64,000 nt of DNA, from sequence record PZ212788.1. The stretch is one strand, 5' to 3'. This document shows, one piece after another, positions 2,268-60,289 of this stretch; the first letter of the stretch is position 1, and each line of letters starts with the position of its first letter. The notes under the pieces were generated by a model. The model was not told the DNA's origin. It did not search any database and worked only from the letters and a program-made list of their open reading frames with translations. The DNA comes from a phage. The position numbers and the translations under genes are program-made.

Positions 2268-4865
2268 ATGCGTATTCAACATAACATTGATAACGTATTT
2301 CAGATGATTGAGGGGCACAGGAAGTGCCTCGATAACAACACAGGTATTACCAACACCTCTACACAAAATAAGCTAGTAAACCCTGATGGTCTTATAGCTG
2401 CAGGGTGGGCAGGTAATAAGATAAATAATGATTGGGCAATGCATGAGTCCCAAGCTGTGTTGATTCTGGGATACATTGAAGCATACAGGGCATCGAAAAG
2501 CGATTTCTATCTGGATAGGGCAAAAGATGCTTGGGAAGCTTACAATAGCCATCTTCTGGGTGCATATGCAGTAGAAAGTAAAATGCAAAGATTGTCCCAC
2601 TACCCTCTATCCACAGATGGGGTTCCATCACATGGTGGGTTTAAAGATGTGGTGGTGTCTTTTACCAACGGTAGAGGAAAAATCCCAGCTGGATCTCCGA
2701 CATGGGGGGAATACCTTGACAAGGCATTCCAAGCGTATAACGGTGTGTTAGGAAGAAACACTGTAGACTCTGATGTTTACGGTGGCACAGATGCTAACCC
2801 AGATTGGACAACATCCGGATTAAGTTGGTGGGTTGAGTGGTACATAGCATGGGATGGTAACCGCTATTGGGCTAACGGTAGCATAGCCGACAGTGGTCAT
2901 ACGTCTGTAGAGTTCGGCACAATCCAATTACAAGATAAGGGTGTTACAGGCAGCCACAAGGTGACCTATTGTGTAAGATTACCTCAAGAGCAGGGCGGAT
3001 CGGTGATACCTGCAGGATCCCCTGTAATTGTAAATCCTATAAACGTGGTTGCAGATAATCAGGCCCCAGAGTTGGACGGGGAAGAAATGTGGTGTGACGC
3101 TTGTTATCAACTCTACACCTTGACAGGTGAGGAAAAGTATTACACCGCGTTTAAACAGTCTTACAACAAATTGCTTAATTTCAGTGATATAAACGCCTAC
3201 GACAAACTGTTTAGGAAGACCACGTTGATTAAGGCACCGTTTACAGATGGTACTTGCCTTGTTGCAGGAACAGTTCCTGCCATGAGCAGGGACAGTGACG
3301 GGTATATCAATTTTAGAATGAACGCACGCCAGCCTTGCGAAATAATTCAAAAAGGGACTACATACAAAATAGGCAGAGATGCTGAAATTGTTATGAATTT
3401 CGGAGGAGAAGGGGTTCTGTTCCAGCCACATTTCATCCTTAATGATGGCAACAATAACAAAAAACAGTACAGGATAGGGGTTCCTTTTGGAGGGGCAGAG
3501 GTAACAGAAATAGTTGCCAAGGTTACTGATTTCGTAGAGGTAGTTGGTAAAGACGGTAATCCGTATCTCTTACCTAAAGAGGAAAACATTGTCGTAAGCG
3601 GTGGCGCTAGTGTTAGTATGCAGTATGATACCGACATTTACAACCACTCTGACAACTTCACCCGTTGTAATATAGCAAGAGGTAAAGTAACTTTCAATTT
3701 TGGGAGAGAGATTTCTTTAAACTCAGTAACTTATCGATCAGATGATGAGATGGTAAGGGTCAAATTTCTTGACAAAGATAGGTGGTTATGGTATGCTGAT
3801 CTATATGCCACTAATGGACAATGGATAACAGAAACTCTTACTCTAGGAGATTTCAAACTAGATCCGACACAACCTCATCACACCGAAGAAGAGATTAAAC
3901 CTTTCTTTGCTAATCCTAAGGGGCTCACCTCTGTAGATTTCAGCCTAAGCGACAGGCAGATAGGTAATGGCTTGTTTGATCTGTACTGCGTAAACACGCT
4001 GCCGCAGTTCTATATTGCAGATAGGGATGCTTATCTGATCTGGTTTAGCGTATGGATGGCAAGCAAGACAGAATCAACCGCTAAGGTTGGTGATTGCTAT
4101 GTCAGAAACTACAAGCAAGGTGCATACAGGCACACACCAGGTGTGTTCCCTGCCGGAAAGGTGATAGATAAGGAAAACTATCTCTTAGAGGAAAGGCCAA
4201 ATTGGCCCTACCCTGGCATGCAATACCCAGCAGTCTACTGCATGGGTGCAGAAAACATAGATCGCCATAGATTGTCAAATACAATAGGCTTTCTGTATGA
4301 CTCTCAAGTCTGGTATAATAATACGTTTAAGACAGAGGGTCCAGTTGCCTCACGTTATGTATGGCAGAGAGGCAATGAAGGGTTGACTGGTTGGTGGGAG
4401 ATGGTAGATAACTCTAAGCTCCAGTCAAGATCTTTTGTTGCTGCGTGCCGCACAATATATGAGCTCAAGAAACATAAAGAACCTGTTGATGAAAGACTAT
4501 TCCTGTTCTGCCAGAAATGGGCATGGTTCCTCAACAGATTCCAGTCATCTCATTCAGGAAATCTGCCTACAGACTTTAACACCTCTGGGGGATATTCTTA
4601 TCAGGACAGAGGAGACAGGATGTGGGTGGTAGGTGAATGGCTTGCAGGTTGCTGCTGGCTAGGTCTGTGCGGGTATTCAGAGACAATACCTCAAATAGAT
4701 ATTGTTGTGGAAGCCTGTGTGAAGCTACTGCAAAAGCACCACTTCATTAATGGGGATAATATTTTAAACGGCTGCTGGGCAGTTTCTGATCCGGTAGGCT
4801 ATCACTCTGGCGAAATCCTTCGCGGTCTGGGCCTTTATGCTCAATACCGTGGATTGTACCTTTAA
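2268..4865 (+). CDS. large tail-associated protein, possible polysaccharide-degrading tailspike
   Basis: 865 aa ORF translationally coupled (TAAGATG) within the tail operon; no fibre-type N-terminal anchor; enzymatic nature is inference only. Confidence 0.3.
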   Translation: MRIQHNIDNVFQMIEGHRKCLDNNTGITNTSTQNKLVNPDGLIAAGWAGNKINNDWAMHESQAVLILGYIEAYRASKSDFYLDRAKDAWEAYNSHLLGAYAVESKMQRLSHYPLSTDGVPSHGGFKDVVVSFTNGRGKIPAGSPTWGEYLDKAFQAYNGVLGRNTVDSDVYGGTDANPDWTTSGLSWWVEWYIAWDGNRYWANGSIADSGHTSVEFGTIQLQDKGVTGSHKVTYCVRLPQEQGGSVIPAGSPVIVNPINVVADNQAPELDGEEMWCDACYQLYTLTGEEKYYTAFKQSYNKLLNFSDINAYDKLFRKTTLIKAPFTDGTCLVAGTVPAMSRDSDGYINFRMNARQPCEIIQKGTTYKIGRDAEIVMNFGGEGVLFQPHFILNDGNNNKKQYRIGVPFGGAEVTEIVAKVTDFVEVVGKDGNPYLLPKEENIVVSGGASVSMQYDTDIYNHSDNFTRCNIARGKVTFNFGREISLNSVTYRSDDEMVRVKFLDKDRWLWYADLYATNGQWITETLTLGDFKLDPTQPHHTEEEIKPFFANPKGLTSVDFSLSDRQIGNGLFDLYCVNTLPQFYIADRDAYLIWFSVWMASKTESTAKVGDCYVRNYKQGAYRHTPGVFPAGKVIDKENYLLEERPNWPYPGMQYPAVYCMGAENIDRHRLSNTIGFLYDSQVWYNNTFKTEGPVASRYVWQRGNEGLTGWWEMVDNSKLQSRSFVAACRTIYELKKHKEPVDERLFLFCQKWAWFLNRFQSSHSGNLPTDFNTSGGYSYQDRGDRMWVVGEWLAGCCWLGLCGYSETIPQIDIVVEACVKLLQKHHFINGDNILNGCWAVSDPVGYHSGEILRGLGLYAQYRGLYL

Positions 4866-47129: not shown

Positions 47130-47894
47130 TTGAAATTCATCTACAAAGAACACTACCACAAAGGTGTTGTGTGGAGTCTATTTGACGGGTCTGGTGGTGC
47201 AGTTATTGACTGGGCAAAAGCTGGGTACCTGTGCCTGTGCTTTAATGCAGAAGGTGCTGACCACGGCAGTTATGCAGAGGTGATAACCGATCATCCTAAC
47301 ATTCACTATGTGGATTATTGGATTGACCCATGGTTCCCTCAGGAAACTTTTTGCATGTATCCAGCTCCAGACTTTATTCTTGCATTTCCTCCGTGCACGC
47401 ATTTAGCGGTATCAGGTGCTGCACATTTTAAGAAAAAGCTGGCTAAGGATCCTTTGATCCAAATTAATGCTGTAAAGGATGCTCGGGTTGCGGAAGAGTT
47501 GGGAGAGATTTACGATTGCCCGTGGCATGTAGAGAATCCTGTAGGGGTTATGTCCACACTGTGGCGAAAACCTGATTACCGTTTTCATCCTTCGGATTAT
47601 GGTGGGTATTTACCGGAGGATGATGTAAACCCCTGGTTTCCTGAATTTATAGCTCCACGTGATGCCTATCCAAAAATAACTTGCGGCTGGATAGGCAATG
47701 GATTTATAATCCCGGCCACAAAACCTGTCCCGCAAATAGTTGACGCGGTTAGCGGGTATTCCATGCAACACGCCAAGCTGGGTGGAAAGAGTGCAAGAAC
47801 GAAGATGATCCGAAGCCTCACGCCACGTGGCTGGGCAAAAGCCGTATTCTTAGCAAACGAGCCTGTAGTAAGGAGCAGAATTAATGGGAAGTAA
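47130..47894 (+). CDS. C5-cytosine methyltransferase-like enzyme with variant catalytic motif
   Basis: Motif I SLFDGSGG, motif IV-like FPPCTH (PC-T instead of PCQ), motif VI-like HVENPVG; track ORF start lies inside the terminator, so start placed at TTG 47130 after AGGAGA. Confidence 0.5.
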   Translation: MKFIYKEHYHKGVVWSLFDGSGGAVIDWAKAGYLCLCFNAEGADHGSYAEVITDHPNIHYVDYWIDPWFPQETFCMYPAPDFILAFPPCTHLAVSGAAHFKKKLAKDPLIQINAVKDARVAEELGEIYDCPWHVENPVGVMSTLWRKPDYRFHPSDYGGYLPEDDVNPWFPEFIAPRDAYPKITCGWIGNGFIIPATKPVPQIVDAVSGYSMQHAKLGGKSARTKMIRSLTPRGWAKAVFLANEPVVRSRINGK

Positions 47895-49962
47895 ATTTAT
47901 GGCATCTGCATACAACCGTTTCGGTGAGCCAAACCCGAAAGCAACTAAGTATAAAAGTGGGGGAAGTGTGAAACGAGACTATCGTGATGAAAAAGAGGTT
48001 GAAACTGTAGAGACTGTTTTAGAAAATACTAAAATTGTCCCTGTCCCACAACAAAATATCGGTCTGATGGCTGCACAATATTTTGGTGTGCGATCAGCAT
48101 TGTCACAAGAAGACGGTGTGACAGTCACTGCAACATATTTCCCATATTACGACCGCTACGGAAATCTGTCCGGTTTCAAAAAGCGTGACTGGACTATTCC
48201 TAAAGAACAAAGGGGCCACTTCTCCGTTGTTGGCATCGTAAAGGCCAACTCCCAGATGTTTGGTCAAAAGCTGTGTGCATCTTCCAACAACCGTAAGCAG
48301 ATTAACGTTTGTGAGGGAGAAGGTGATGTTATTGCAGCATGGCAGGCTGCATATCAGATACAAGTAAAAGGGATTCTCACCAACGCTAAAGCCCCGGCAA
48401 AGGTGAAGCAGTGGGCTAAAGAGGTCCAGGACGGGATCGACGCAGTTATCAACGGTGGTGATCTGGCAGGAAAACCCTGCCTGCCTTTTGTTGGAATTAA
48501 CTGTGGATGTGCAAACGCAGTAGATACTTTTGCAAACAATGAGAAGTTTATCCGTAGCTATGGAACAGTTGTGCTGGCAATGGATAACGATGCAGCTAAC
48601 GAGGTAGAGAAGCAAAAACACGTCATTAAAGGTGTTGAGGCCACGCACAATATCGCAGCATTTTTGATGGCTGATAACGTTTACCACGTAGAATACCCTG
48701 GTGAAGTAAATGACCCTGACGGGGTAAAAGATATCCGTGACATGCTGAAGGCTAAAAAGCTGGAAGATATTGTCAACATGTTCCGGCATCCTGTTAAATA
48801 TGTGCCTGATGCTGTGTCGGACTTAGAAGACTTCTCTATCGAGTCTTTGCGGAAAAAGACTTCCAACGGGGTAGATATCAGCGCAGAGTTCCCAAAACTG
48901 CAAAAAATGCTAAAAGGCTTGCACAAAGGGACACTCGTAATGCTTACAGGTCCATCAGGCGGTGGTAAAACAACCGTGGCTAAAAAACTGGAACACTGTA
49001 TTGCAAGATATCTAATGGACCCGACATGCCCGAAGGCTGATGACTATGAAGAGGATGATCGTCTATGTATGATCCATCTTGAGGAGGACCCAGAGGAAGC
49101 AATTAACTCCTTGTATGCAAACCAGTTAGGGTTTGATGTTAAAGAGTTTGTTGAAGATCCTAGCCAGTTTTTAACTGATCAAGAACACGCAGAGATTCAC
49201 CAATCATGGGCAAAAGCTGGAAAAATCAAAGTGTTCAAACATTTCGGATCTATTCCGGTGGACGAGTTGATTACTAAGCTTAAGCAAATGGTTTGCCTGT
49301 ACCATTGTCGTTATATTGTGCTGGATCACCTGTCCATGGTAATTTCAGGGCTTAATGTTAAAGATGAGCGAAAAGAACTGGACATGGCTATGACCCAACT
49401 GGCTGCGTTTTGTAAGCAGTTTAACGTGTTTATCTTGGTGATCGCTCACCTCAAACGTACAGAGATTGTGCCTCCTAAGGACAAGGATGGTAACCCATTA
49501 CCTTTCTGGTATCCTGTGCGAAAAGAGAATTTGCGAGGATCGGCTGGGCTTGAACAGTTGAGTTGGGTAGTCATAGGTGTCGAGGCCGAAGAAATGGTGG
49601 ATCGTTCTCGTGGGCGTGTCCGTCTGGTAGGTCTTAAAAACCGTCCAGCAAAAACTTTAGGTATTGCTGACACTTTAGTTATGGATCCGCATACAGGTAA
49701 GTTCCATGATGCCAGTAATTGGTACTGGGACAAAGAAATGCAGATGTTTACAGACGGAGAAGGTGGGGAGGTTGTTTGGAGACCTCAGGCCATGTTTGAG
49801 GACCAAGAGCATGCAGTTGTAGAAACACCTATGGGCAAGGTTGTAGCCGATAAGGTTGTAACTCCTACTATTAAGCCTGTTGACACGCAGGAAGACCTCC
49901 AGTACGATGATCCATCCTCTGACCCGGTCCCTGGTTTTGAGGATGATGAAACGCCTTTTTAA
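47884..49962 (+). CDS. DNA primase-helicase (TOPRIM primase plus DnaB/T7 gp4-like helicase)
   Basis: TOPRIM motifs NVCEGEGDVIAA and LAMDNDAANE; Walker A MLTGPSGGGKTT; acidic C-terminus ending DDETPF. Confidence 0.8.
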   Translation: MGSKFMASAYNRFGEPNPKATKYKSGGSVKRDYRDEKEVETVETVLENTKIVPVPQQNIGLMAAQYFGVRSALSQEDGVTVTATYFPYYDRYGNLSGFKKRDWTIPKEQRGHFSVVGIVKANSQMFGQKLCASSNNRKQINVCEGEGDVIAAWQAAYQIQVKGILTNAKAPAKVKQWAKEVQDGIDAVINGGDLAGKPCLPFVGINCGCANAVDTFANNEKFIRSYGTVVLAMDNDAANEVEKQKHVIKGVEATHNIAAFLMADNVYHVEYPGEVNDPDGVKDIRDMLKAKKLEDIVNMFRHPVKYVPDAVSDLEDFSIESLRKKTSNGVDISAEFPKLQKMLKGLHKGTLVMLTGPSGGGKTTVAKKLEHCIARYLMDPTCPKADDYEEDDRLCMIHLEEDPEEAINSLYANQLGFDVKEFVEDPSQFLTDQEHAEIHQSWAKAGKIKVFKHFGSIPVDELITKLKQMVCLYHCRYIVLDHLSMVISGLNVKDERKELDMAMTQLAAFCKQFNVFILVIAHLKRTEIVPPKDKDGNPLPFWYPVRKENLRGSAGLEQLSWVVIGVEAEEMVDRSRGRVRLVGLKNRPAKTLGIADTLVMDPHTGKFHDASNWYWDKEMQMFTDGEGGEVVWRPQAMFEDQEHAVVETPMGKVVADKVVTPTIKPVDTQEDLQYDDPSSDPVPGFEDDETPF

Positions 49963-50020: not shown

Positions 50021-50755
50021 ATGAACGAGTTCAGAGATCACTGTGTAGCCAATCACTTGTGGTCAGAAATATTGGAGTATGACGGTCAAAATCTTTTTTG
50101 GAAGATAGACATTCTGGCAGGTAGCGGTGTAGGATATGTTAAAACTTCAGCAGGCTCCAGAGCCGACAAGGGGCAAGATGCTGATGGCAGGCCTGTGGTT
50201 AGCCTAGGAAAGCATTGCACTAAAGGTGCCCACGTCATAATTTGGGAAATGTTTAACGGTCCTGTACCGGAAGGGTATGAGGTTGACCACATCAAGGAGA
50301 TAAGGGAAACAGGTGGTGTGGCTGATAACAGTATTCAAAATTTGCAACTACTCGAGCCCACAGATAACAAAAAGAAAAGTTGCAAGATACCTCGTAGCAA
50401 CAACAAATCTGGCAGGGTCGGGGTGCACTATTCTGAAGAAAGAGAGGCATGGGTAGCTCAAGGCACAGACTCTGTAGGGGAAAGGGTCTGGCTAGGCCAG
50501 TACAGAACTTTCGAAGAGGCAGAGTGGGCAAGAAAGTTCTTCGAAGATAATGGTTTTTCGCACAAGAGTGGAAGAGCCGTGCAGTATAATAACACCAGCG
50601 GTTGCTCAGGGGTGAATTGGGATAAAACCCATGAGAGATGGGTAGCCAGAATTTATGTAGATGGTAAAAGGAAATGCCTTGGGTATTTCAAGAATAGGGA
50701 CGATGCAATAGCTGCAAGAAAGAATGCTGAGAAGAAACAGGAGGAGACAGTATGA
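50021..50755 (+). CDS. HNH homing endonuclease with tandem AP2-like DNA-binding domains
   Basis: HNH core around GYEVDHIKEI; two AP2-like repeats (SGRVGVHYSEEREAWVAQ..., SGCSGVNWDKTHERWVARIYVDGKRKCLGYF). Confidence 0.65.
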   Translation: MNEFRDHCVANHLWSEILEYDGQNLFWKIDILAGSGVGYVKTSAGSRADKGQDADGRPVVSLGKHCTKGAHVIIWEMFNGPVPEGYEVDHIKEIRETGGVADNSIQNLQLLEPTDNKKKSCKIPRSNNKSGRVGVHYSEEREAWVAQGTDSVGERVWLGQYRTFEEAEWARKFFEDNGFSHKSGRAVQYNNTSGCSGVNWDKTHERWVARIYVDGKRKCLGYFKNRDDAIAARKNAEKKQEETV

Positions 50756-53529
50756 GTAATTGGTGCTTCGATCTGGAGGCCTCCGGGCTTTTGGAAGACC
50801 CAGATCTTTATTATCACTGCGGCCTGTTTAAAGAGCTGAATAAGAACCGTTTTATGCTGTTCCTTCCTCTAAATGACCGCACACACTACTCCGAGGAGGA
50901 TATAGAAAAGGCTAAGAACTTCATTCTGGCAAAGAAAACTCTTTATAAAGATTTTGAAGTTCGCATAGCAGATTTTTCAGAGTTGGAAGGTTGGCTTACA
51001 GGAAATTCTGACTGGTCACCAACAGCTTTGAACTGCCATAACTGCTACAGTTATGACTTTATGCTGATGGAAAGATTATCTGGTATTCATTTTGATATGT
51101 TCCGTGATCCTAAATGTATGGGGACTATCAACGATCACCAGGTTAACCTGTTTGATACGTTGGCGATGAGCCGAATCTTGTGGCCTGATCGCCCTTTACC
51201 AAAAGGTTGTCCGGACTCTGTATTCAACCCGGTTACTAAGAAAATGCAACCTGTTGGTCCTCACGGCCTTATGGCATGGGGCTACGCCCTTGGTAACCAG
51301 AAAGTTCAAATTGATGACTGGCGCGATCTTCCGTTGTGGAAGTATGTGGATCGTGTATTCGAGGACGTTATCATCCAGGAGCTGCTCTGGAAAGAGCTGG
51401 TAGCGGAATCAAAAGGTGTATTCTACGGCAAATCTGACATGCAGAACTTTATGTACGATCCAGCCAAAGAGAAGCCGAAAGGGTTCAAGAAAATCACCTG
51501 GAAGAACGCATTACGCCGAGGCATGCTGCAGCACTTCCTGATGGAGCTGCAGGCCCGTCAGGGTGTGTATTTCGACATAGATGGGGCTATTGCTTTACGT
51601 GACCGTTGCGATGCGTGGATGAAAGAGATCGCTGATCGTGTTGAACCTCAACTTCCTTTAAAAGAGTTGTCAATGTCTCAGCGGCCCAAGTTCCCTGAAA
51701 AGCCGTTTAACCAAGATGGGACAATCTCCAATAATGGTTGGAAATGGTTAAAAGATAAGCTTGGCTATCCTGTAGACATGAGCGCTTTAGAATTCAAAGC
51801 CCCGCCTAAGCGAGCATTTACCTCCACAGGAGATGTCAGCAAGATGGGGATAAAATGGTGCGAAGAGATGGGCTGCAAAGACCCCGACAAGATGGCTGAT
51901 TTCTTGAGAGGTTATATTAAGGGCACCTCCACACCACAACCTTTACCTAAAGAGCTGATGGATCAGGCAATAAGTGATCTGCAGCAGAAGCGAATGCCTG
52001 ACTGCAAGATACCTATGAAAATCAGCAATCAGGACGACATTAAGCGATACCTGATCAGTGCTGGTTGGCTCCCAACAATGTGGAGAACTAAGGATGTAAC
52101 TAAAGACAGCAAGAAGAAAGCTCTACCTGATGCAGATGTTGATGCACGAGTGTATGCATATATGGACGAGCTTTTAGAGTCAGAGTATTGTGACCTAATT
52201 ATCAACTTCTGGAACAAAACTGATGCTAAGTTCCAGACAACCGTGCACAAGTTCCGAAGCTTTCCTAACTCCGAAAGGATTAAAAAGGAAGTATTCGGGA
52301 AAATACGTAGAAAAGCTAGGGCACTTATTACTTCTCCGCAACTGAAAGATACGTTTGGACACCTATGCCCGAATCTTGAAAAATTGAACGGAGAGATGGC
52401 TAAAGATATCGTCTTGTGGTTATCATTGCGAAACCGCAGATCGGTCCTTGATCCAATTAAGGAGGATAAGGTTGATACTGGTCTTCTTAATCACCCACGT
52501 TTGAAGATTGACCATAAGCTTCCTGCTAAAAGCTCTGGATTAACAAACACTTCCAGACAGAAACACAGTATTTGTGCAAACATGCCTAAACCATCTCCTA
52601 AAGTGGTTATGGGTAAAGAGATGCGTAGTCTGTGGGGTGTTCCTCCGGGATACTTTGAGATCGGTATTGACGGGTCCAACTTAGAGCAGCTTATCGGGGC
52701 TTGGGGTGCCTTTGAGTTCGACAACGGCTTGTATTATGATGTTGTAAGTAACGGAGACGCACACCAAAACAATGCTGAGGCATATACAAAAGTGGCAGGC
52801 AGAGAGGTGTCCCGTAACGACGGTAAACCTATCACGTATGGGGTTATGTACGGGGCACAAAAAGATAAAGTTGCAGATATGCTGGACATCTCCCCAGAGT
52901 TGGGACAAAGGGTAATCGATGCACTCTGGGATGCCAACCCAGGTCTTAAGGGGCGCAAAGAGGATCTGGAGAAATTCTGGGAAGCAACAGGTAAGAAGTT
53001 TATCTACTCTTTTGATGGTCATGCTATCTGGACCCGATCTAAACACTCTTTACTTAATGCATACCAACAAAATGGCGGTGCATCGTTGTGTGACTTAGTT
53101 GGAATACTCATGCACCACCAGATGGTGAAGCGTGGGTGGTACGATGAAGGTGTTCGTCGTATTATCTATTACCATGACGAATATCAGCTTCAAGTCCCTG
53201 ACACACCGAAGTATAAGACTGTGTACACCTTCGACACAATCGAAGAACTGGAAGCATTTAAGGCAGAGCAGGAGGCCAAACTTCATGTGTTCGACGGTCA
53301 TAAGTACAAAAAGGCACGCAAGGATGAGGACGGAAACGAAGTGGTTGACAGAGACGGAAACACGGTGTACGATCCTATCCTGAATGATGACGGAAAGCTT
53401 GAACTTATCTGGAGCCCTGTGGGTGAAATGGTGGTGCATTGCTTCTGGCAAGCTTCTAAAATGATGGGCGTCCCGTTCCAGATCACAGGTGAATACTTGT
53501 GTGGTCGTAATTGGGGCGATTGTCACTAA
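50752..53529 (+). CDS. DNA polymerase, family A with 3'-5' exonuclease domain
   Basis: Exo I FDLEASGL; motif A-like IGIDGSNLEQLIG; motif B-like R..GKPITYGVMYGAQ; motif C YYHDEYQL. Confidence 0.8.
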   Translation: MSNWCFDLEASGLLEDPDLYYHCGLFKELNKNRFMLFLPLNDRTHYSEEDIEKAKNFILAKKTLYKDFEVRIADFSELEGWLTGNSDWSPTALNCHNCYSYDFMLMERLSGIHFDMFRDPKCMGTINDHQVNLFDTLAMSRILWPDRPLPKGCPDSVFNPVTKKMQPVGPHGLMAWGYALGNQKVQIDDWRDLPLWKYVDRVFEDVIIQELLWKELVAESKGVFYGKSDMQNFMYDPAKEKPKGFKKITWKNALRRGMLQHFLMELQARQGVYFDIDGAIALRDRCDAWMKEIADRVEPQLPLKELSMSQRPKFPEKPFNQDGTISNNGWKWLKDKLGYPVDMSALEFKAPPKRAFTSTGDVSKMGIKWCEEMGCKDPDKMADFLRGYIKGTSTPQPLPKELMDQAISDLQQKRMPDCKIPMKISNQDDIKRYLISAGWLPTMWRTKDVTKDSKKKALPDADVDARVYAYMDELLESEYCDLIINFWNKTDAKFQTTVHKFRSFPNSERIKKEVFGKIRRKARALITSPQLKDTFGHLCPNLEKLNGEMAKDIVLWLSLRNRRSVLDPIKEDKVDTGLLNHPRLKIDHKLPAKSSGLTNTSRQKHSICANMPKPSPKVVMGKEMRSLWGVPPGYFEIGIDGSNLEQLIGAWGAFEFDNGLYYDVVSNGDAHQNNAEAYTKVAGREVSRNDGKPITYGVMYGAQKDKVADMLDISPELGQRVIDALWDANPGLKGRKEDLEKFWEATGKKFIYSFDGHAIWTRSKHSLLNAYQQNGGASLCDLVGILMHHQMVKRGWYDEGVRRIIYYHDEYQLQVPDTPKYKTVYTFDTIEELEAFKAEQEAKLHVFDGHKYKKARKDEDGNEVVDRDGNTVYDPILNDDGKLELIWSPVGEMVVHCFWQASKMMGVPFQITGEYLCGRNWGDCH

Positions 53530-56342: not shown

Positions 56343-56711
56343 ATGGAACAAATGAACGATCAAGAGTCGGTTGCGATGAACGAGCAAGAACAACCTCAAG
56401 AATTTTTCTTAGGGTTAAGTAAAGATCAAGTGTCTCTTTTGCTAGTGCTTTCTTCTTTCATGGGAAGACTTCAGGAGCTCACACAACAACCGGAGGCTGA
56501 ACAATTATTTCAGGCTCTGCGTGAAGAAGAAAAATATCGTCGTTTGGACTATGCCTTAGGTTGGGTAGCTCAACAACGAGATATGTTGATGGCCCTCTCT
56601 GGGACCACAAGTTTTGCAATGGGCCTGTTGGCTCAAGTTCAGGACAAATTAATTCAAGCAGGGTTTGCACACACGGCAAACACTAACGAAGAACAAGGAG
56701 ACAAAGAATGA
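56343..56711 (+). CDS. hypothetical protein
   Basis: 122 aa ORF. Confidence 0.4.
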   Translation: MEQMNDQESVAMNEQEQPQEFFLGLSKDQVSLLLVLSSFMGRLQELTQQPEAEQLFQALREEEKYRRLDYALGWVAQQRDMLMALSGTTSFAMGLLAQVQDKLIQAGFAHTANTNEEQGDKE

Positions 56712-57979
56712 GCGTTATTCAACAATTCGCTAACCCGATGAATCCGCGTGAAACTGTTTTACTGGCTCACGGCATGATTAAACGCGTCAGCATCAAGCCT
56801 ATCAAAGGTGCTGATCCTACAACAGGTATTAAAACCACTGTGTGGCAAGGTAAGAAAATTGAGTCCAGCCACACCATCTCTTTACTGATTTCTGAACTGG
56901 ATTCCTCTGATAACCTACTTCAAGGTGGTGAAGAAGTTTGGATCAGTATGGGCGATAAGCTGCTTAAACCGGGTCATCAAGACTCTGTCTCTGTTAAAAT
57001 TGATGACAAGTGGGAAACCGTAACGCCAGGATGGATCGTAAATATCCCTTTGAAGGCAAACGAGCATAACGGTAAGACCTACTACAAAGGCTCACTGGCT
57101 AAGATGGTTAAGCTGGGTGCAGGAGAGGCTCCAGCAGCGACTCAGCAGCAAAAACAGCAACAAGGTGCACAATCACAAGGCCAGAAGCAGAAACCTCAGC
57201 AGAATGCCAATCAGGACGTTTTACGCATCTATGGTGATGTGACTCAGATTGTTGGCAACGTGGTTACTGTTAATGACCACAAGATTGGCGAAGGTGCTAT
57301 GGTTGTAACTGATGAGCAGCTTAAAGACCTGGTGGTAGGTGGTCGTGTTGCAGCCATTGTTGACAAAGACACCGGAAACATTATCAGTGGTTTCAAAGCC
57401 TATCCTCCTAAGGCAGAGAACGGCACTCAAGGCTCTGGTGGCAAGCGTAAATCCTCTTACGACCCTATCGGTGTGGAGACGGGACATAGCATCAATGCGT
57501 TGCAGATCATCCTGGATCGCGGGTTTAAGGTAGACGACCCACTGGGCGTGGCTAAAACACTGCACGTAGTCACCATTGAGCTTAAGAAAGAGTATGCTCA
57601 AGCCACCAACCGAACTGAAGATGAAGTAGGTGCCAGTGTCGGTAATGCGGTGTTGAACGCTTGTCGCCGTATTGACAAGAAAACGAAAGTTGATGATTTT
57701 GCAGTGGCAATTACTGCAGAAGCAAAAGATGTCTTGACTAATCTAGCTGAGCCGTTGTACGATTGGATCAAGAACGGTGCTGAGTCCACTGACCATCAAG
57801 AACCTCAGGCTGCCAAACAGGAAGCAGCTCCACAGCAAAACACTGTAGACGCTCCTCCTGTAAATGATGGGGAAGATGACCCGATGGATCAGAATCCAGC
57901 ACAGTATGACTTCTGTGATGACATACCTTTCGCTCCGGTGGGTTTGCAATATGGAAAAAGCAGAATCCACGCATTGTAA
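56708..57979 (+). CDS. single-stranded DNA-binding protein-like, with internal acidic DDIPF motif
   Basis: Gln-rich linker ([26 protein letters not shown]) and acidic region ...[19 protein letters not shown] typical of SSB C-terminal tips, but followed by 15 extra residues before the stop. Confidence 0.5.
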
Positions 57980-58574
57980 GAGGTGCATCAAGTGCGGAGA
58001 GGTGAAAAACCTCTCCGAGTTCTACAAACACCCAAAGATGTCTGACGGTCATCTTAATAAGTGCAAAGAGTGTTGCAAGAAGGCCAGCAGGGAGGCTGAC
58101 AGGTTTTCCCACGACTCTTCAGAAAAAGGTGTAATACGCGTGCTGTACAAGGCTCAAAAGTGCAACAGCAAGCAAAGAGGCCACCCTCCTCCGACTTACA
58201 CCAAAAAAGAGTTTAAGGAGTGGCTATACCTGAACGGTTACAAAGAGTTGTATGATCAGTGGGTAGCCAGCGGATACGACAAAAGGAAAAAGCCTTCTTG
58301 TGACAGGATAGATGATTTCAAAGGGTACTCTTTTGATAATATCCGTTTAACGACTTGGGGAGAAAATAAAGACAAGCAGACGGAGGATATTCTGTTGCAT
58401 AGAAGCACCAGCGGTAGACGGTGTAAAAATGTAAGAAGGCTGGACATGAATGGAAACGTTCTTAAAGAATGGGTATCCCACAATTCTTGTAGAAGAGAAA
58501 CCGGAATATGTGTTGATTACTACATTCATGAAAAAATTCCAGCCCCCGATGGATACCTCTATGAATACTTTTAG
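57951..58574 (+). CDS. HNH-family endonuclease (free-standing, zinc-finger N-terminus)
   Basis: [10 protein letters not shown]...CKECC cysteine cluster; [27 protein letters not shown]-like core; start trimmed to ATG 57951, overlapping the 3' end of the SSB-like gene. Confidence 0.5.
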
Positions 58575-58589
58575 CACCTAACTAACATA

Positions 58590-58618
58590 GCCCTGCCCGA
58601 AAGGGTGGGGCATTTTTG
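58590..58618 (+). terminator. rho-independent terminator (GAAA-loop family, copy 2)
   Basis: gccctgccc-gaaa-gggtggggc followed by atttttg. Confidence 0.7.
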
Positions 58619-59415: not shown

Positions 59416-59841
59416 ATGATCTATGAAATGCCAAAACTGATTCGTGACGATGCCCAAAACGCCCACACCTTTATCATGGGCAAGCGCATGGATATTATTT
59501 GTCATAAAGATTTCTGGGAAGGTAGTTACTTCACAGAATATTTTGGTAAACTGGATAATGGTCTGCTGATCCAGTTCTACACCGATGCGGAAAACAATAT
59601 CTGCTGGGAGTTCGAAACTGAAGATATCCATAAACTTTTCACCTTCCTAGGTATTAAGGTTGAGGCCAAGTTTGAAGAAGGCGAGTGCGACGATTGTGGA
59701 TTCTACGAGGTAACAGATTTCTATCTCCCAAGTGGTGAGAACCTTTACTATGAAAGCCACTTCGGCAACTCAAATATGCCACAAGGTTGGGATGAGTTTT
59801 TTGAAATTGCGGAAGAGGAGCTGACATACCGTGATTATTGA
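59416..59841 (+). CDS. hypothetical protein
   Basis: 141 aa ORF with GGAGAA RBS. Confidence 0.4.
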   Translation: MIYEMPKLIRDDAQNAHTFIMGKRMDIICHKDFWEGSYFTEYFGKLDNGLLIQFYTDAENNICWEFETEDIHKLFTFLGIKVEAKFEEGECDDCGFYEVTDFYLPSGENLYYESHFGNSNMPQGWDEFFEIAEEELTYRDY

Positions 59842-60289
59842 TACTGTAGCGGGAGATTTAATCTCCCTTTTTAAGAGCGGTGCTGGTCACCTGATCCACG
59901 GTTGTAACTGCTTTCATACAATGGGTGCAGGCATAGCGAAAGATATTGCCCGTGAGTTCCCTCAAGCACTGGCAGCCGACAAAGAGACTGCCTATGGTAA
60001 TCTGGACAAGCTGGGTATGTTTTCTTGTTGGGAGCATTTTGCCAAGAACAGGGTCGTATATGGAATCAACCTGTATACCCAGTTCTACCCAGGGCCCAAT
60101 GCTGAATACTTCTCAATAATGAAAGGTTTTGAGCGAGTCAACGAGGTATTCAAAGGTGTGTCATTGCCGTTCTACATTCCTAAAATTGGATGCGGTATTG
60201 GCGGTCTAAAGTGGGAACATGTAGAAGATGTAATTAATCTTGCAACCACAGATATTGATGTGGTTGTAGTAGAGTACAAAAAGTGTTGA
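59831..60289 (+). CDS. macro domain protein (ADP-ribose binding/processing)
   Basis: HLIHGCNCFHTMGAGIAKDIA matches the macro-domain NAAN..L..GGGVA.AI region; later KIGCGIGGLKWEHV matches the G.GI.G motif; GTG start. Confidence 0.6.
   Translation: MIIDTVAGDLISLFKSGAGHLIHGCNCFHTMGAGIAKDIAREFPQALAADKETAYGNLDKLGMFSCWEHFAKNRVVYGINLYTQFYPGPNAEYFSIMKGFERVNEVFKGVSLPFYIPKIGCGIGGLKWEHVEDVINLATTDIDVVVVEYKKC

Follow-up and report, generated by a model that had tools for sequence, protein, structure and literature searches.

An extended SSB-type tip and its overlapping homing-type endonuclease gene in an rV5-like phage: a portable module probably imported as one cassette

An SSB-like gene (SSB, a protein binding single-stranded DNA) and the endonuclease gene overlapping its 3' end were analysed in the phage sequence record PZ212788.1, a DNA stretch of 64,000 nucleotides which is referred to as the window and to which all positions belong unless stated otherwise. 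The SSB-like protein carries an acidic SSB-type tip, DFCDDIPF, followed by 15 further residues. The comparisons described below favour, with moderate confidence, the explanation that the extended tip is portable and was imported in the lineage of the window together with a tip-associated homing endonuclease, the presumed effect being the capping or retargeting of the tip. Over 2.8 kb around the locus, the DNA was 94-99% identical to about 117 records of rV5-group (Vequintavirus) phages and, as judged from this identity, the source phage is an rV5-like Vequintavirus. The two genes correspond to rV5 gp209 (SSB-like, 99% identical protein) and rV5 gp208 (endonuclease). The translation bore out two claims made previously from the letters of the window (the sequence-only reading): the DFCDDIPF tip at residues 401-408 is internal, as the protein continues to residue 423, and the endonuclease gene, for which a different frame is opened by ATG 57951, shares 29 nt with the end of the SSB-like gene.

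Results

Allelic states of the locus

Three allelic states of the same site were found among phages that are at least 95% identical and have collinear flanks. In state A (FFH2, JLBYU08, RudolfGeigy/Bas52), the SSB-like protein consists of 408 aa, ends with ..FDDDIPF*, and is separated by 62 nt from the next gene without an endonuclease gene in between. In state B (navn), the protein ends with ..DDSIPF*, the TGA codon standing right after F408, and a 192-aa endonuclease gene with a different 5' end begins 8 nt downstream. State C, present in the window and rV5, comprises the 423-aa protein with the tip and the 15-residue extension and the overlapping 207-aa endonuclease gene. According to coverage classes, approximately 66, 19 and 32 of the 117 records were assigned to states A, B and C, respectively. 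As the navn-type allele leaves the protein ending at IPF, the insertion of an endonuclease gene alone does not extend the host gene.

Compared with state A, state C contained about 640 bp of additional DNA after the F408 codon (TTC), the boundaries of which are ambiguous by a TTY / CTTT repeat. The homology restarts at TTT-TAG-CACCTAACTAACATAGCCC, collinear with TTT-TAA-CATCTAGTTAACATAGCCC of the empty site, therefore the last codon and the stop codon of the endonuclease gene occupy the former place of those of the host gene. In the alignments of the window with empty-site genomes, 0-4 mismatches per 50 nt were counted over approximately 1.15 kb of the left flank, the number rising to 7-9 in the bin of 50 nt that adjoins the junction; on the right side, the 50-nt bin next to the junction contained 4-5 mismatches and the remaining bins 0-7. 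The left junction bin differed from that of rV5, which has the same state, by 2 mismatches. This pattern of divergence fits an imported cassette and, due to the spike at the left junction, the tip codons also look imported along with it. A 395-aa allele (P0005) of a metagenomic Vequintavirus (L048, positions 3140-3200) carries the DFCDDIPF tip of state C, ends there and has an otherwise empty site; judging by its sequence, it is evidently a recombinant between states C and A within the tip codons.

The sequence-only reading had proposed that a homing-endonuclease insertion altered the 3' end of the SSB gene. This part held insofar as the extension and the endonuclease gene make up one insertion/deletion of about 640 bp, whereas an accidental alteration had to be dismissed for the reasons given in the following sections.

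Occurrence of the extension among phage proteins

Among 72 homologues obtained by the whole-protein search, 27 run past IPF, and all 27 carry the same motif down to an overall identity of 26%. The motif reads A-P-[VI]-G-L-Q-Y (rarely SPV.. or AYA..) and is followed by 7-10 residues; the other homologues stop exactly at PF, save one partial sequence which is cut before the tail. The extensions are 14-17 residues long and end with [A/C]-hydrophobic. The window protein conforms in each respect to an extended tip defined as IPF or TPF, A-P-[IV]-G-L-Q-Y and a tail of 7-10 residues with a hydrophobic last residue at the C-terminus of the protein.

A degenerate-codon scan for DDIPFAPxGLQY resulted in 32 viral and 8 bacterial contigs. 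The matches were mostly canonical bacterial-type SSBs of 40-55-kb temperate phages, ending with ..EPPMDFDDDIPFAPIGLQYPALLNCM and usually having unrelated genes next to them, and the extension was without an endonuclease gene in most of these loci. The search of 1.84 billion representative proteins with a profile of the tail yielded 45 clusters, 44 of them with the motif at the C-terminus, which belong to several unrelated SSB-type families. Cluster P0226 of the same search was discarded as a spurious multi-stretch match. When E. coli genomes were searched, a Vibrio-type extended SSB (L036) gave one partial match only and the mEp554-type query was informative. In the case of primase/helicases, the protein of Cronobacter phage GAP31 ends with ..DFDNDTPFAPIGLQYANHAIYAL and is accompanied by an endonuclease gene, and the protein of Salmonella phage SEW_6S has the tip only. 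As far as can be judged from the sequences, the extended tip is a portable module, carried immediately behind IPF/TPF by phage replication/recombination proteins of at least four kinds that are unrelated to one another.

The extension without an adjoining endonuclease gene was detected in PVP-SE1 gp038, where a terminator and a convergent tail gene come after it, in Serratia phage Kashira, in Justusliebigvirus muut and in the primase/helicase of Klebsiella phage VLCpiM5b. Together with the many endonuclease-less SSBs, these homologues contradict the view that the extension is an accident of the HNH gene; extended homologues lacking this gene are what the sequence-only reading had itself named as a refutation.

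Literature searches on the rV5 SSB, on DDDIPF in a phage or HNH context and on C-terminal extensions of prophage SSBs gave no description of the extension; a paper on the HK620 SSB concerns another terminal motif, NDYPPF. The SSB-like protein and the free-standing homing endonuclease are of known kinds. In the literature that could be searched, there was no account of the conserved peptide behind the tip or of its link to an endonuclease associated with tips.

Linkage of the extension with the endonuclease gene

The extension of the window and the first approximately 50 endonuclease codons, which encode a Cys4 zinc ribbon, shared 68-72% of their DNA sequence with the corresponding loci of mEp554, GAP31, PsgM04F and ABPH49. 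The matching parts are the 3' ends of a canonical lambdoid SSB gene (mEp554), a primase/helicase gene (GAP31) and genes of SSB-like homologues (PsgM04F, ABPH49), each with its overlapping endonuclease gene. The nuclease domains following the zinc ribbon differ, being PacI-like (DR..GYS..N) in the window and classical (HHxDY..CH..H) in mEp554, PsgM04F and ABPH49. Since the zinc ribbon is common and the nuclease domains are not, the shared unit would consist of the tip, the extension and the zinc ribbon. Moreover, a 29-nt stretch of the extension, CAATATGGAAAAAGCAGAATCCACGCATT, is identical in the window and in the SSB locus of a temperate phage (L033).

Several loci display different degrees of loss. 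The extension and both 5' and 3' stubs of the endonuclease gene are kept in a relative of 83% identity (L011), L033 and L037 are deletion derivatives retaining the extension and endonuclease stubs, and a 5'-truncated endonuclease gene is kept in ABPH49. Among E. coli prophage alleles, the tip only (L067), the full set (mEp554), and the tip and extension with an endonuclease stub of 8 codons, joined in fusion to the gene that follows (L066), were observed. Four more distant endonuclease homologues were sampled; a canonical ssb gene immediately precedes two of them, and a third comes behind the gene of a helicase whose terminus is ..DEDIPF and 25 further residues. According to these gene orders, the endonuclease family is a recurrent neighbour on the 3' side of tip-bearing genes.

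It was considered whether the extension is ancestral to the SSB-like protein of Vequintavirinae, so that the endonuclease gene was inserted after a gene which had the extension before, and the tip-only alleles arose secondarily by deletion of the extension, either together with the endonuclease gene or without it. Members of several genera of Vequintavirinae (Seunavirus PVP-SE1, Kashira, ABPH49) as well as Stephanstirmvirinae have the extension, which would agree with such a history, and the deletion of the endonuclease gene is demonstrable in L011 and L066. However, most alleles of Vequintavirus and of the relatives with 57-83% identity end at IPF, the empty sites are clean with a stop directly after F, the spike of divergence at the junction takes in the tip codons, and the extension closest to that of the window, with the 29 identical nucleotides, belongs to an unrelated temperate-phage SSB. 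An ancestral extension is therefore regarded as unlikely, although it deserves more weight than the other alternatives.

The following observations were made on related loci. The helicase ending with ..DEDIPF is a DEAD/ResIII helicase of a metagenomic contig (L062, positions 1297-1476); its terminus, ..DISDEDIPF, is followed by a different 25-residue extension, SLSIAIPLASLSLYLEWYNLII, and the homologue of the window's endonuclease begins 24 nt 3' of it. By its sequence, this is another internalised tip, the tail of which is unrelated to the APxGLQY extension. The GAP31 gene GAP31_256 (L015, positions 1545-2042), annotated as 'baseplate wedge protein gp25', encodes a zinc-ribbon HNH endonuclease and overlaps the stop of the primase/helicase gene, where TATGCCCTGTAA encodes both YAL* and, in a second frame, MPCK. 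The primase/helicase of the window itself (47884-49962, + strand, 692 aa) has a free SSB-like acidic tip, ..GFEDDETPF*. It is followed after 59 nt by a different homing-type endonuclease gene (50021-50755, + strand; Pfam HNH_3 with an E-value of 5e-12, AP2), which is wedged before the DNA polymerase gene at 50752-53529; the same gap in GAP31 holds the tip, an APIGLQY extension and the zinc-ribbon endonuclease.

Selection acting on the extension

The APxGLQY codons were compared in seven sequences that had been found independently of the motif. Synonymous differences were counted in 83 codon pairs and non-synonymous differences in 12 (all V/I); the non-synonymous divergence (dN) was at most 0.10 and the synonymous divergence (dS) was saturated. 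The other eight codons of the extension were variable (39 synonymous and 104 non-synonymous differences), with the hydrophobic pattern and the [A/C]-hydrophobic end being kept. In all 48 unique sequences, a biased set as it was collected by the motif, the third codon positions differed in 59% of the pairs and the first and second positions in 1-12%. The saturation of synonymous sites at kept amino acids means that the extension is not read-through junk but a peptide which is itself under purifying selection; on the codon evidence, its core is maintained by selection on the protein.

A removable pro-peptide or a degron, by which a host protease would restore the terminal IPF or time the turnover of the protein, is a rather improbable role of the peptide. 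The tip is fully conserved before the extension, which suggests that it is still used, and the [A/C]-hydrophobic-COOH ends of the extensions resemble ssrA-like ClpX C-motifs. However, this resemblance is one seen by eye, and no protease site or precedent was identified. A comparison by eye with beta-clamp motifs (QL[SD]LF), PIP boxes, LexA-type Ala-Gly sites and ssrA/SulA degrons gave no convincing match.

It is highly improbable that the peptide is conserved only as DNA serving the endonuclease, i.e. as its ribosome-binding site, start region or recognition site, without a role in the SSB-like protein. The last approximately 9 codons do overlap the start of the endonuclease gene (YAL*, encoded by TATGCCTTGTAA, also reads MPCK, and YGKSRIHAL overlaps MEKAESTHC), and the endonuclease-associated extensions are of the G[KR]xxI[YH]AL type. 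However, APxGLQY, the most conserved part, lies upstream of the overlap and its third codon positions vary freely, and PALLNCM-type extensions occur on canonical SSBs without an endonuclease. In the endonuclease-less muut, the changes in the region that elsewhere overlaps the endonuclease start leave the amino acids of the SSB frame unaltered but alter those of the endonuclease frame. Conservation at the level of DNA, as an endonuclease target, a ribosome-binding site or a terminator, was thus rejected because third positions are saturated, amino acids are kept and endonuclease-less alleles retain the peptide.

A model along the lines of the sequence-only reading, with the stop codon lost by the insertion and the 15 residues being a senseless translation of cassette DNA, tolerated as the tip is dispensable, can hardly be upheld: the single insertion/deletion relative to empty-site relatives and the predicted disorder of the peptide would suit it, but distant homologues, canonical SSBs and a primase/helicase have this peptide behind IPF too, in many cases without an endonuclease gene, its core is under purifying selection, an unrelated extension is present in no family member, and the navn-type endonuclease allele retains TGA right after F408.

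Properties of the SSB-like protein

Residues 1-408 of the SSB-like protein matched positions 1-393 of the 393-position phrog_4477 profile with an E-value of 3.2e-173. The profile does not reach past residue 408, which means that phenylalanine is the usual last residue in this family. Pfam gave no match better than an E-value of 0.1, and the protein was not assigned to the Pfam SSB family (PF00436). The AlphaFold2 model, built with 42 homologues, consisted of confident beta domains at residues 1-138 and 171-232, resembling the OB folds of SSB, PriB or RPA, a four-helix bundle at residues 253-355 and a disordered acidic tail at residues 361-423. The designation 'SSB-like' is reasonable at the level of the modelled fold and the context. 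The acidic stretch ends in I-P-F, as in SSBs, with P407 and F408 invariant in the family alignment; F408 is followed by 15 residues and is thus not the last residue with a free alpha-carboxylate.

The orthologue in phage RudolfGeigy, Bas52_0087, has been described as a predicted two-OB-fold SSB-like protein with an 'FDDDIPF C-tip' and as the trigger of the reverse-transcriptase defence DRT10, and its tip was proposed to compete with SbcB (ExoI); the functional evidence is genetic, from DRT10 escape mutants (bioRxiv 10.64898/2026.04.29.721553). The examination of bas52_0087 showed a 408-aa protein encoded at the same genomic position as the SSB-like gene of the window. D252, the residue of a DRT10 escape mutation, is nearly invariant across the SSB-like family.

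Properties of the endonuclease

The endonuclease matched the phrog_1035 profile with an E-value of 1e-40. In the alignment of 46 homologues, C12, C15, C38, C41, W104, P115, S116, R119, Y126 and N139 were invariant and N130 nearly so. Pfam gave nothing usable with the window protein, and with the 46 homologues only NUMOD-type domains were detected, the I-HmuI NUMOD-like domain (PF22083) being present in 15 of them. A PDB search with the single sequence resulted in marginal matches only, so that the family profile and a structure model were required. With the profile, E-values of 7.4e-5 and 0.013 were determined for I-HmuI and PacI, respectively. The AlphaFold2 model had a confidence (pLDDT) of 92, and its top Foldseek matches were PacI (probability 0.99) and I-HmuI (probability 0.89). 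The model, Foldseek and the profile all point to a beta-beta-alpha-metal fold, in which the invariant N139 would provide the metal-ligand Asn of the alpha helix.

A dead nuclease, which R119 in place of a histidine might indicate, was considered and not adopted, as the DR..GYS..N signature is shared by PacI, an active enzyme. In PacI, Tyr replaces the missing His (PMC5714182). The GenBank/PHROG name T4 endonuclease VII was rejected, as neither the Pfam nor the PDB matches included an endonuclease VII family or structure. According to sequence profiles and the model, the most fitting name of the protein would be PacI/I-HmuI-like homing-type endonuclease of the His-Me finger class, and 'endonuclease VII' would be a misnomer.

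Features of the locus and neighbouring genes

The coordinates of the locus are collected in Table 1.

Table 1. Features of the SSB-like/endonuclease locus in the window.
Feature	Position	Strand	Basis and remarks
SSB-like gene	56708-57979	+	423 aa; orthologue of rV5 gp209 and Bas52_0087
Internalised SSB-type tip DFCDDIPF, aa 401-408	57908-57931	+	Translation; relatives end there with ..FDDDIPF* or ..DDSIPF*
15-residue 'extended tip' peptide, aa 409-423	57932-57976	+	Stop codon 57977-57979; same motif after IPF in other proteins
Free-standing gene (207 aa) of a putative His-Me finger endonuclease, PacI/I-HmuI-like, HNH superfamily	57951-58574	+	Profiles, AlphaFold2, Foldseek
N-terminal Cys4 zinc ribbon of the endonuclease (predicted)	57984-58073	+	Translation; invariant C12, C15, C38, C41
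Beta-beta-alpha-metal motif of the endonuclease (predicted)	58293-58367	+	Invariant R119, Y126, N139 (PacI-type); aligned to I-HmuI (VDHKDG..N) and PacI (VDRSDSFEGYS..N)
Cassette of about 640 bp missing from empty-site relatives	57932-58571	+	Alignments; divergence spike at both junctions
Terminator-like hairpin and T run	58590-58617	+	Just 3' of the insertion site; alignment: common to all three allelic states

The start of the SSB-like gene is overlapped (ATGA) by a 122-aa gene at 56343-56711 (+ strand; phrog_7310), which is labelled 'putative single-stranded DNA-binding protein' in phage JLBYU08; Pfam gave nothing in support of this label. Three genes 3' of the locus, a small Macro-domain protein is encoded at 59831-60289 (+ strand; Pfam Macro, E-value 1e-5). 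The rV5-like region was matched at 97% identity or higher by 16 'Campylobacter phage' records (MG0656xx), 15 of which list Campylobacter jejuni as the host; from this similarity the host label looks doubtful.

Discussion

The explanation favoured here assumes the import of a single block, about 0.7 kb in length, which comprised the terminal approximately 30 nt coding for the tip, the extension of 45 nt and the overlapping endonuclease gene. This import could have occurred by recombination or homing within the conserved tip-coding sequence, with the final codon and the stop codon of the endonuclease gene taking the place of the original TTT-TAA of the host gene. Later the endonuclease gene could be deleted and the extension left behind. 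Both the import, as opposed to a deletion at the empty sites, and the homing by the endonuclease are inferred from sequence comparisons. For a site-specific cleavage of endonuclease-less alleles with biased inheritance, indirect support comes from the divergence spike at the junctions and from the repeated location of such genes behind tip-bearing ones.

As to the function, the established biology of SSB offers a plausible consequence of the extension. In RecO, an Arg anchors the terminal carboxylate of SSB (PMC3152348). An internal Phe is devoid of the carboxylate which partners anchor by Arg, therefore the extension should cap or retarget the tip. A capped or retargeted tip would engage other host factors, possibly involving ExoI/SbcB and SSB-sensing defences such as DRT10. 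The broader proposal, that the extension is a selected device for capping or retargeting the SSB docking tip and has been spread between unrelated phage genes by tip-specialised homing endonucleases, is a tentative one and is given less credence than the import in the lineage of the window.

Several points weigh against the import of a functional tip by a homing endonuclease. The direction of the change is deduced from comparisons, and the alleles with an empty site may have arisen by the exact loss of an extension and endonuclease gene which were ancestral. The DFC tip on the empty site of L048 indicates that recombination shuffles the tip, extension and endonuclease parts. In the VLCpiM5b primase/helicase, the extension is a clean 45-nt insertion/deletion with no trace of an endonuclease, so the peptide can move or persist alone. 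The scans for the DDIPFAPxGLQY motif were ascertainment-biased by design. In the AlphaFold2 model, the pLDDT of the tail was about 35 (below 40), and the extension was not docked on the folded domains. The first beta strand of the endonuclease does not end with the canonical catalytic His, R119 being aligned with the His of the I-HmuI sequence VDHKDG, and the predicted nuclease activity of the protein relies on the analogy with PacI.

The C-terminal tip of SSB is the textbook case of a motif that is obliged to sit at the end of a protein. A selected peptide behind this tip in dozens of phage and prophage SSB-type proteins either challenges the end rule or represents a natural way of switching off or retargeting the tip. 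If the broader proposal is correct, the locus would be an unusual case of a homing endonuclease bringing a functional peptide tag into a host gene, i.e. of a mobile element with a protein tag as its cargo, and a shift would be expected in the host SSB-interacting proteins engaged (ExoI/SbcB, RecQ, PriA, chi and others) and in DRT10-type immune sensing. Among nearly isogenic phages there are some whose tip is free, others whose tip is capped, and carriers of either endonuclease allele; several of them belong to the BASEL collection, such as the capped-tip phages EmilHeitz, DrSchubert and MaxBurger, and they make the role of the tip in defence triggering and host-factor recruitment directly testable.

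Comparison with known systems

The closest known counterpart of the SSB-like protein is Bas52_0087 (QXV84166.1) of RudolfGeigy, an orthologue with about 98% identity over residues 1-408 and the same genome position. The two proteins have in common two OB-like domains, a four-helix bundle and an acidic tail with an FDDDIPF-type tip. Bas52_0087 ends at F after 408 aa and no endonuclease gene follows, whereas in the window DFCDDIPF is succeeded by the 15 residues and the overlapping endonuclease gene. The C-terminus of E. coli SSB (..MDFDDDIPF-COOH) shares with the window protein the same or nearly the same hexapeptide after a disordered acidic/Pro-rich linker, and many relatives of the latter end exactly with ..EPPMDFDDDIPF. 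The chain of E. coli SSB terminates with the Phe, the carboxylate of which is Arg-anchored in partners (PMC3152348), unlike the internal Phe of the window protein, which is also outside PF00436.

The predicted endonuclease resembles I-HmuI (PDB 1u3e) and free-standing phage HNH endonucleases in the beta-beta-alpha-metal core followed by a NUMOD-like DNA-binding tail. As with free-standing phage HNH endonucleases, its presence is polymorphic among near-identical phages and the gene is placed between conserved genes. In contrast to I-HmuI, the window endonuclease, known here from sequence, has an N-terminal Cys4 zinc ribbon and an Arg for the catalytic His, and its gene is not intron-encoded but overlaps the 3' end of a host gene. 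PacI (PDB 3ldy / 3m7k) shares the active-site signature DRxDxFxGYSxxNxRL..N, with a Tyr available for the missing His. However, PacI, a restriction enzyme of bacteria, has no NUMOD-like tail, and the sequence relationship is marginal, with E-values of 0.013-0.3. A similar arrangement is reportedly found in T4, where the free-standing homing endonuclease gene of SegG lies beside the SSB gene 32 and co-converts flanking markers; unlike the endonuclease of the window locus, SegG is said to be a GIY-YIG enzyme which leaves the C-terminus of the SSB unchanged.

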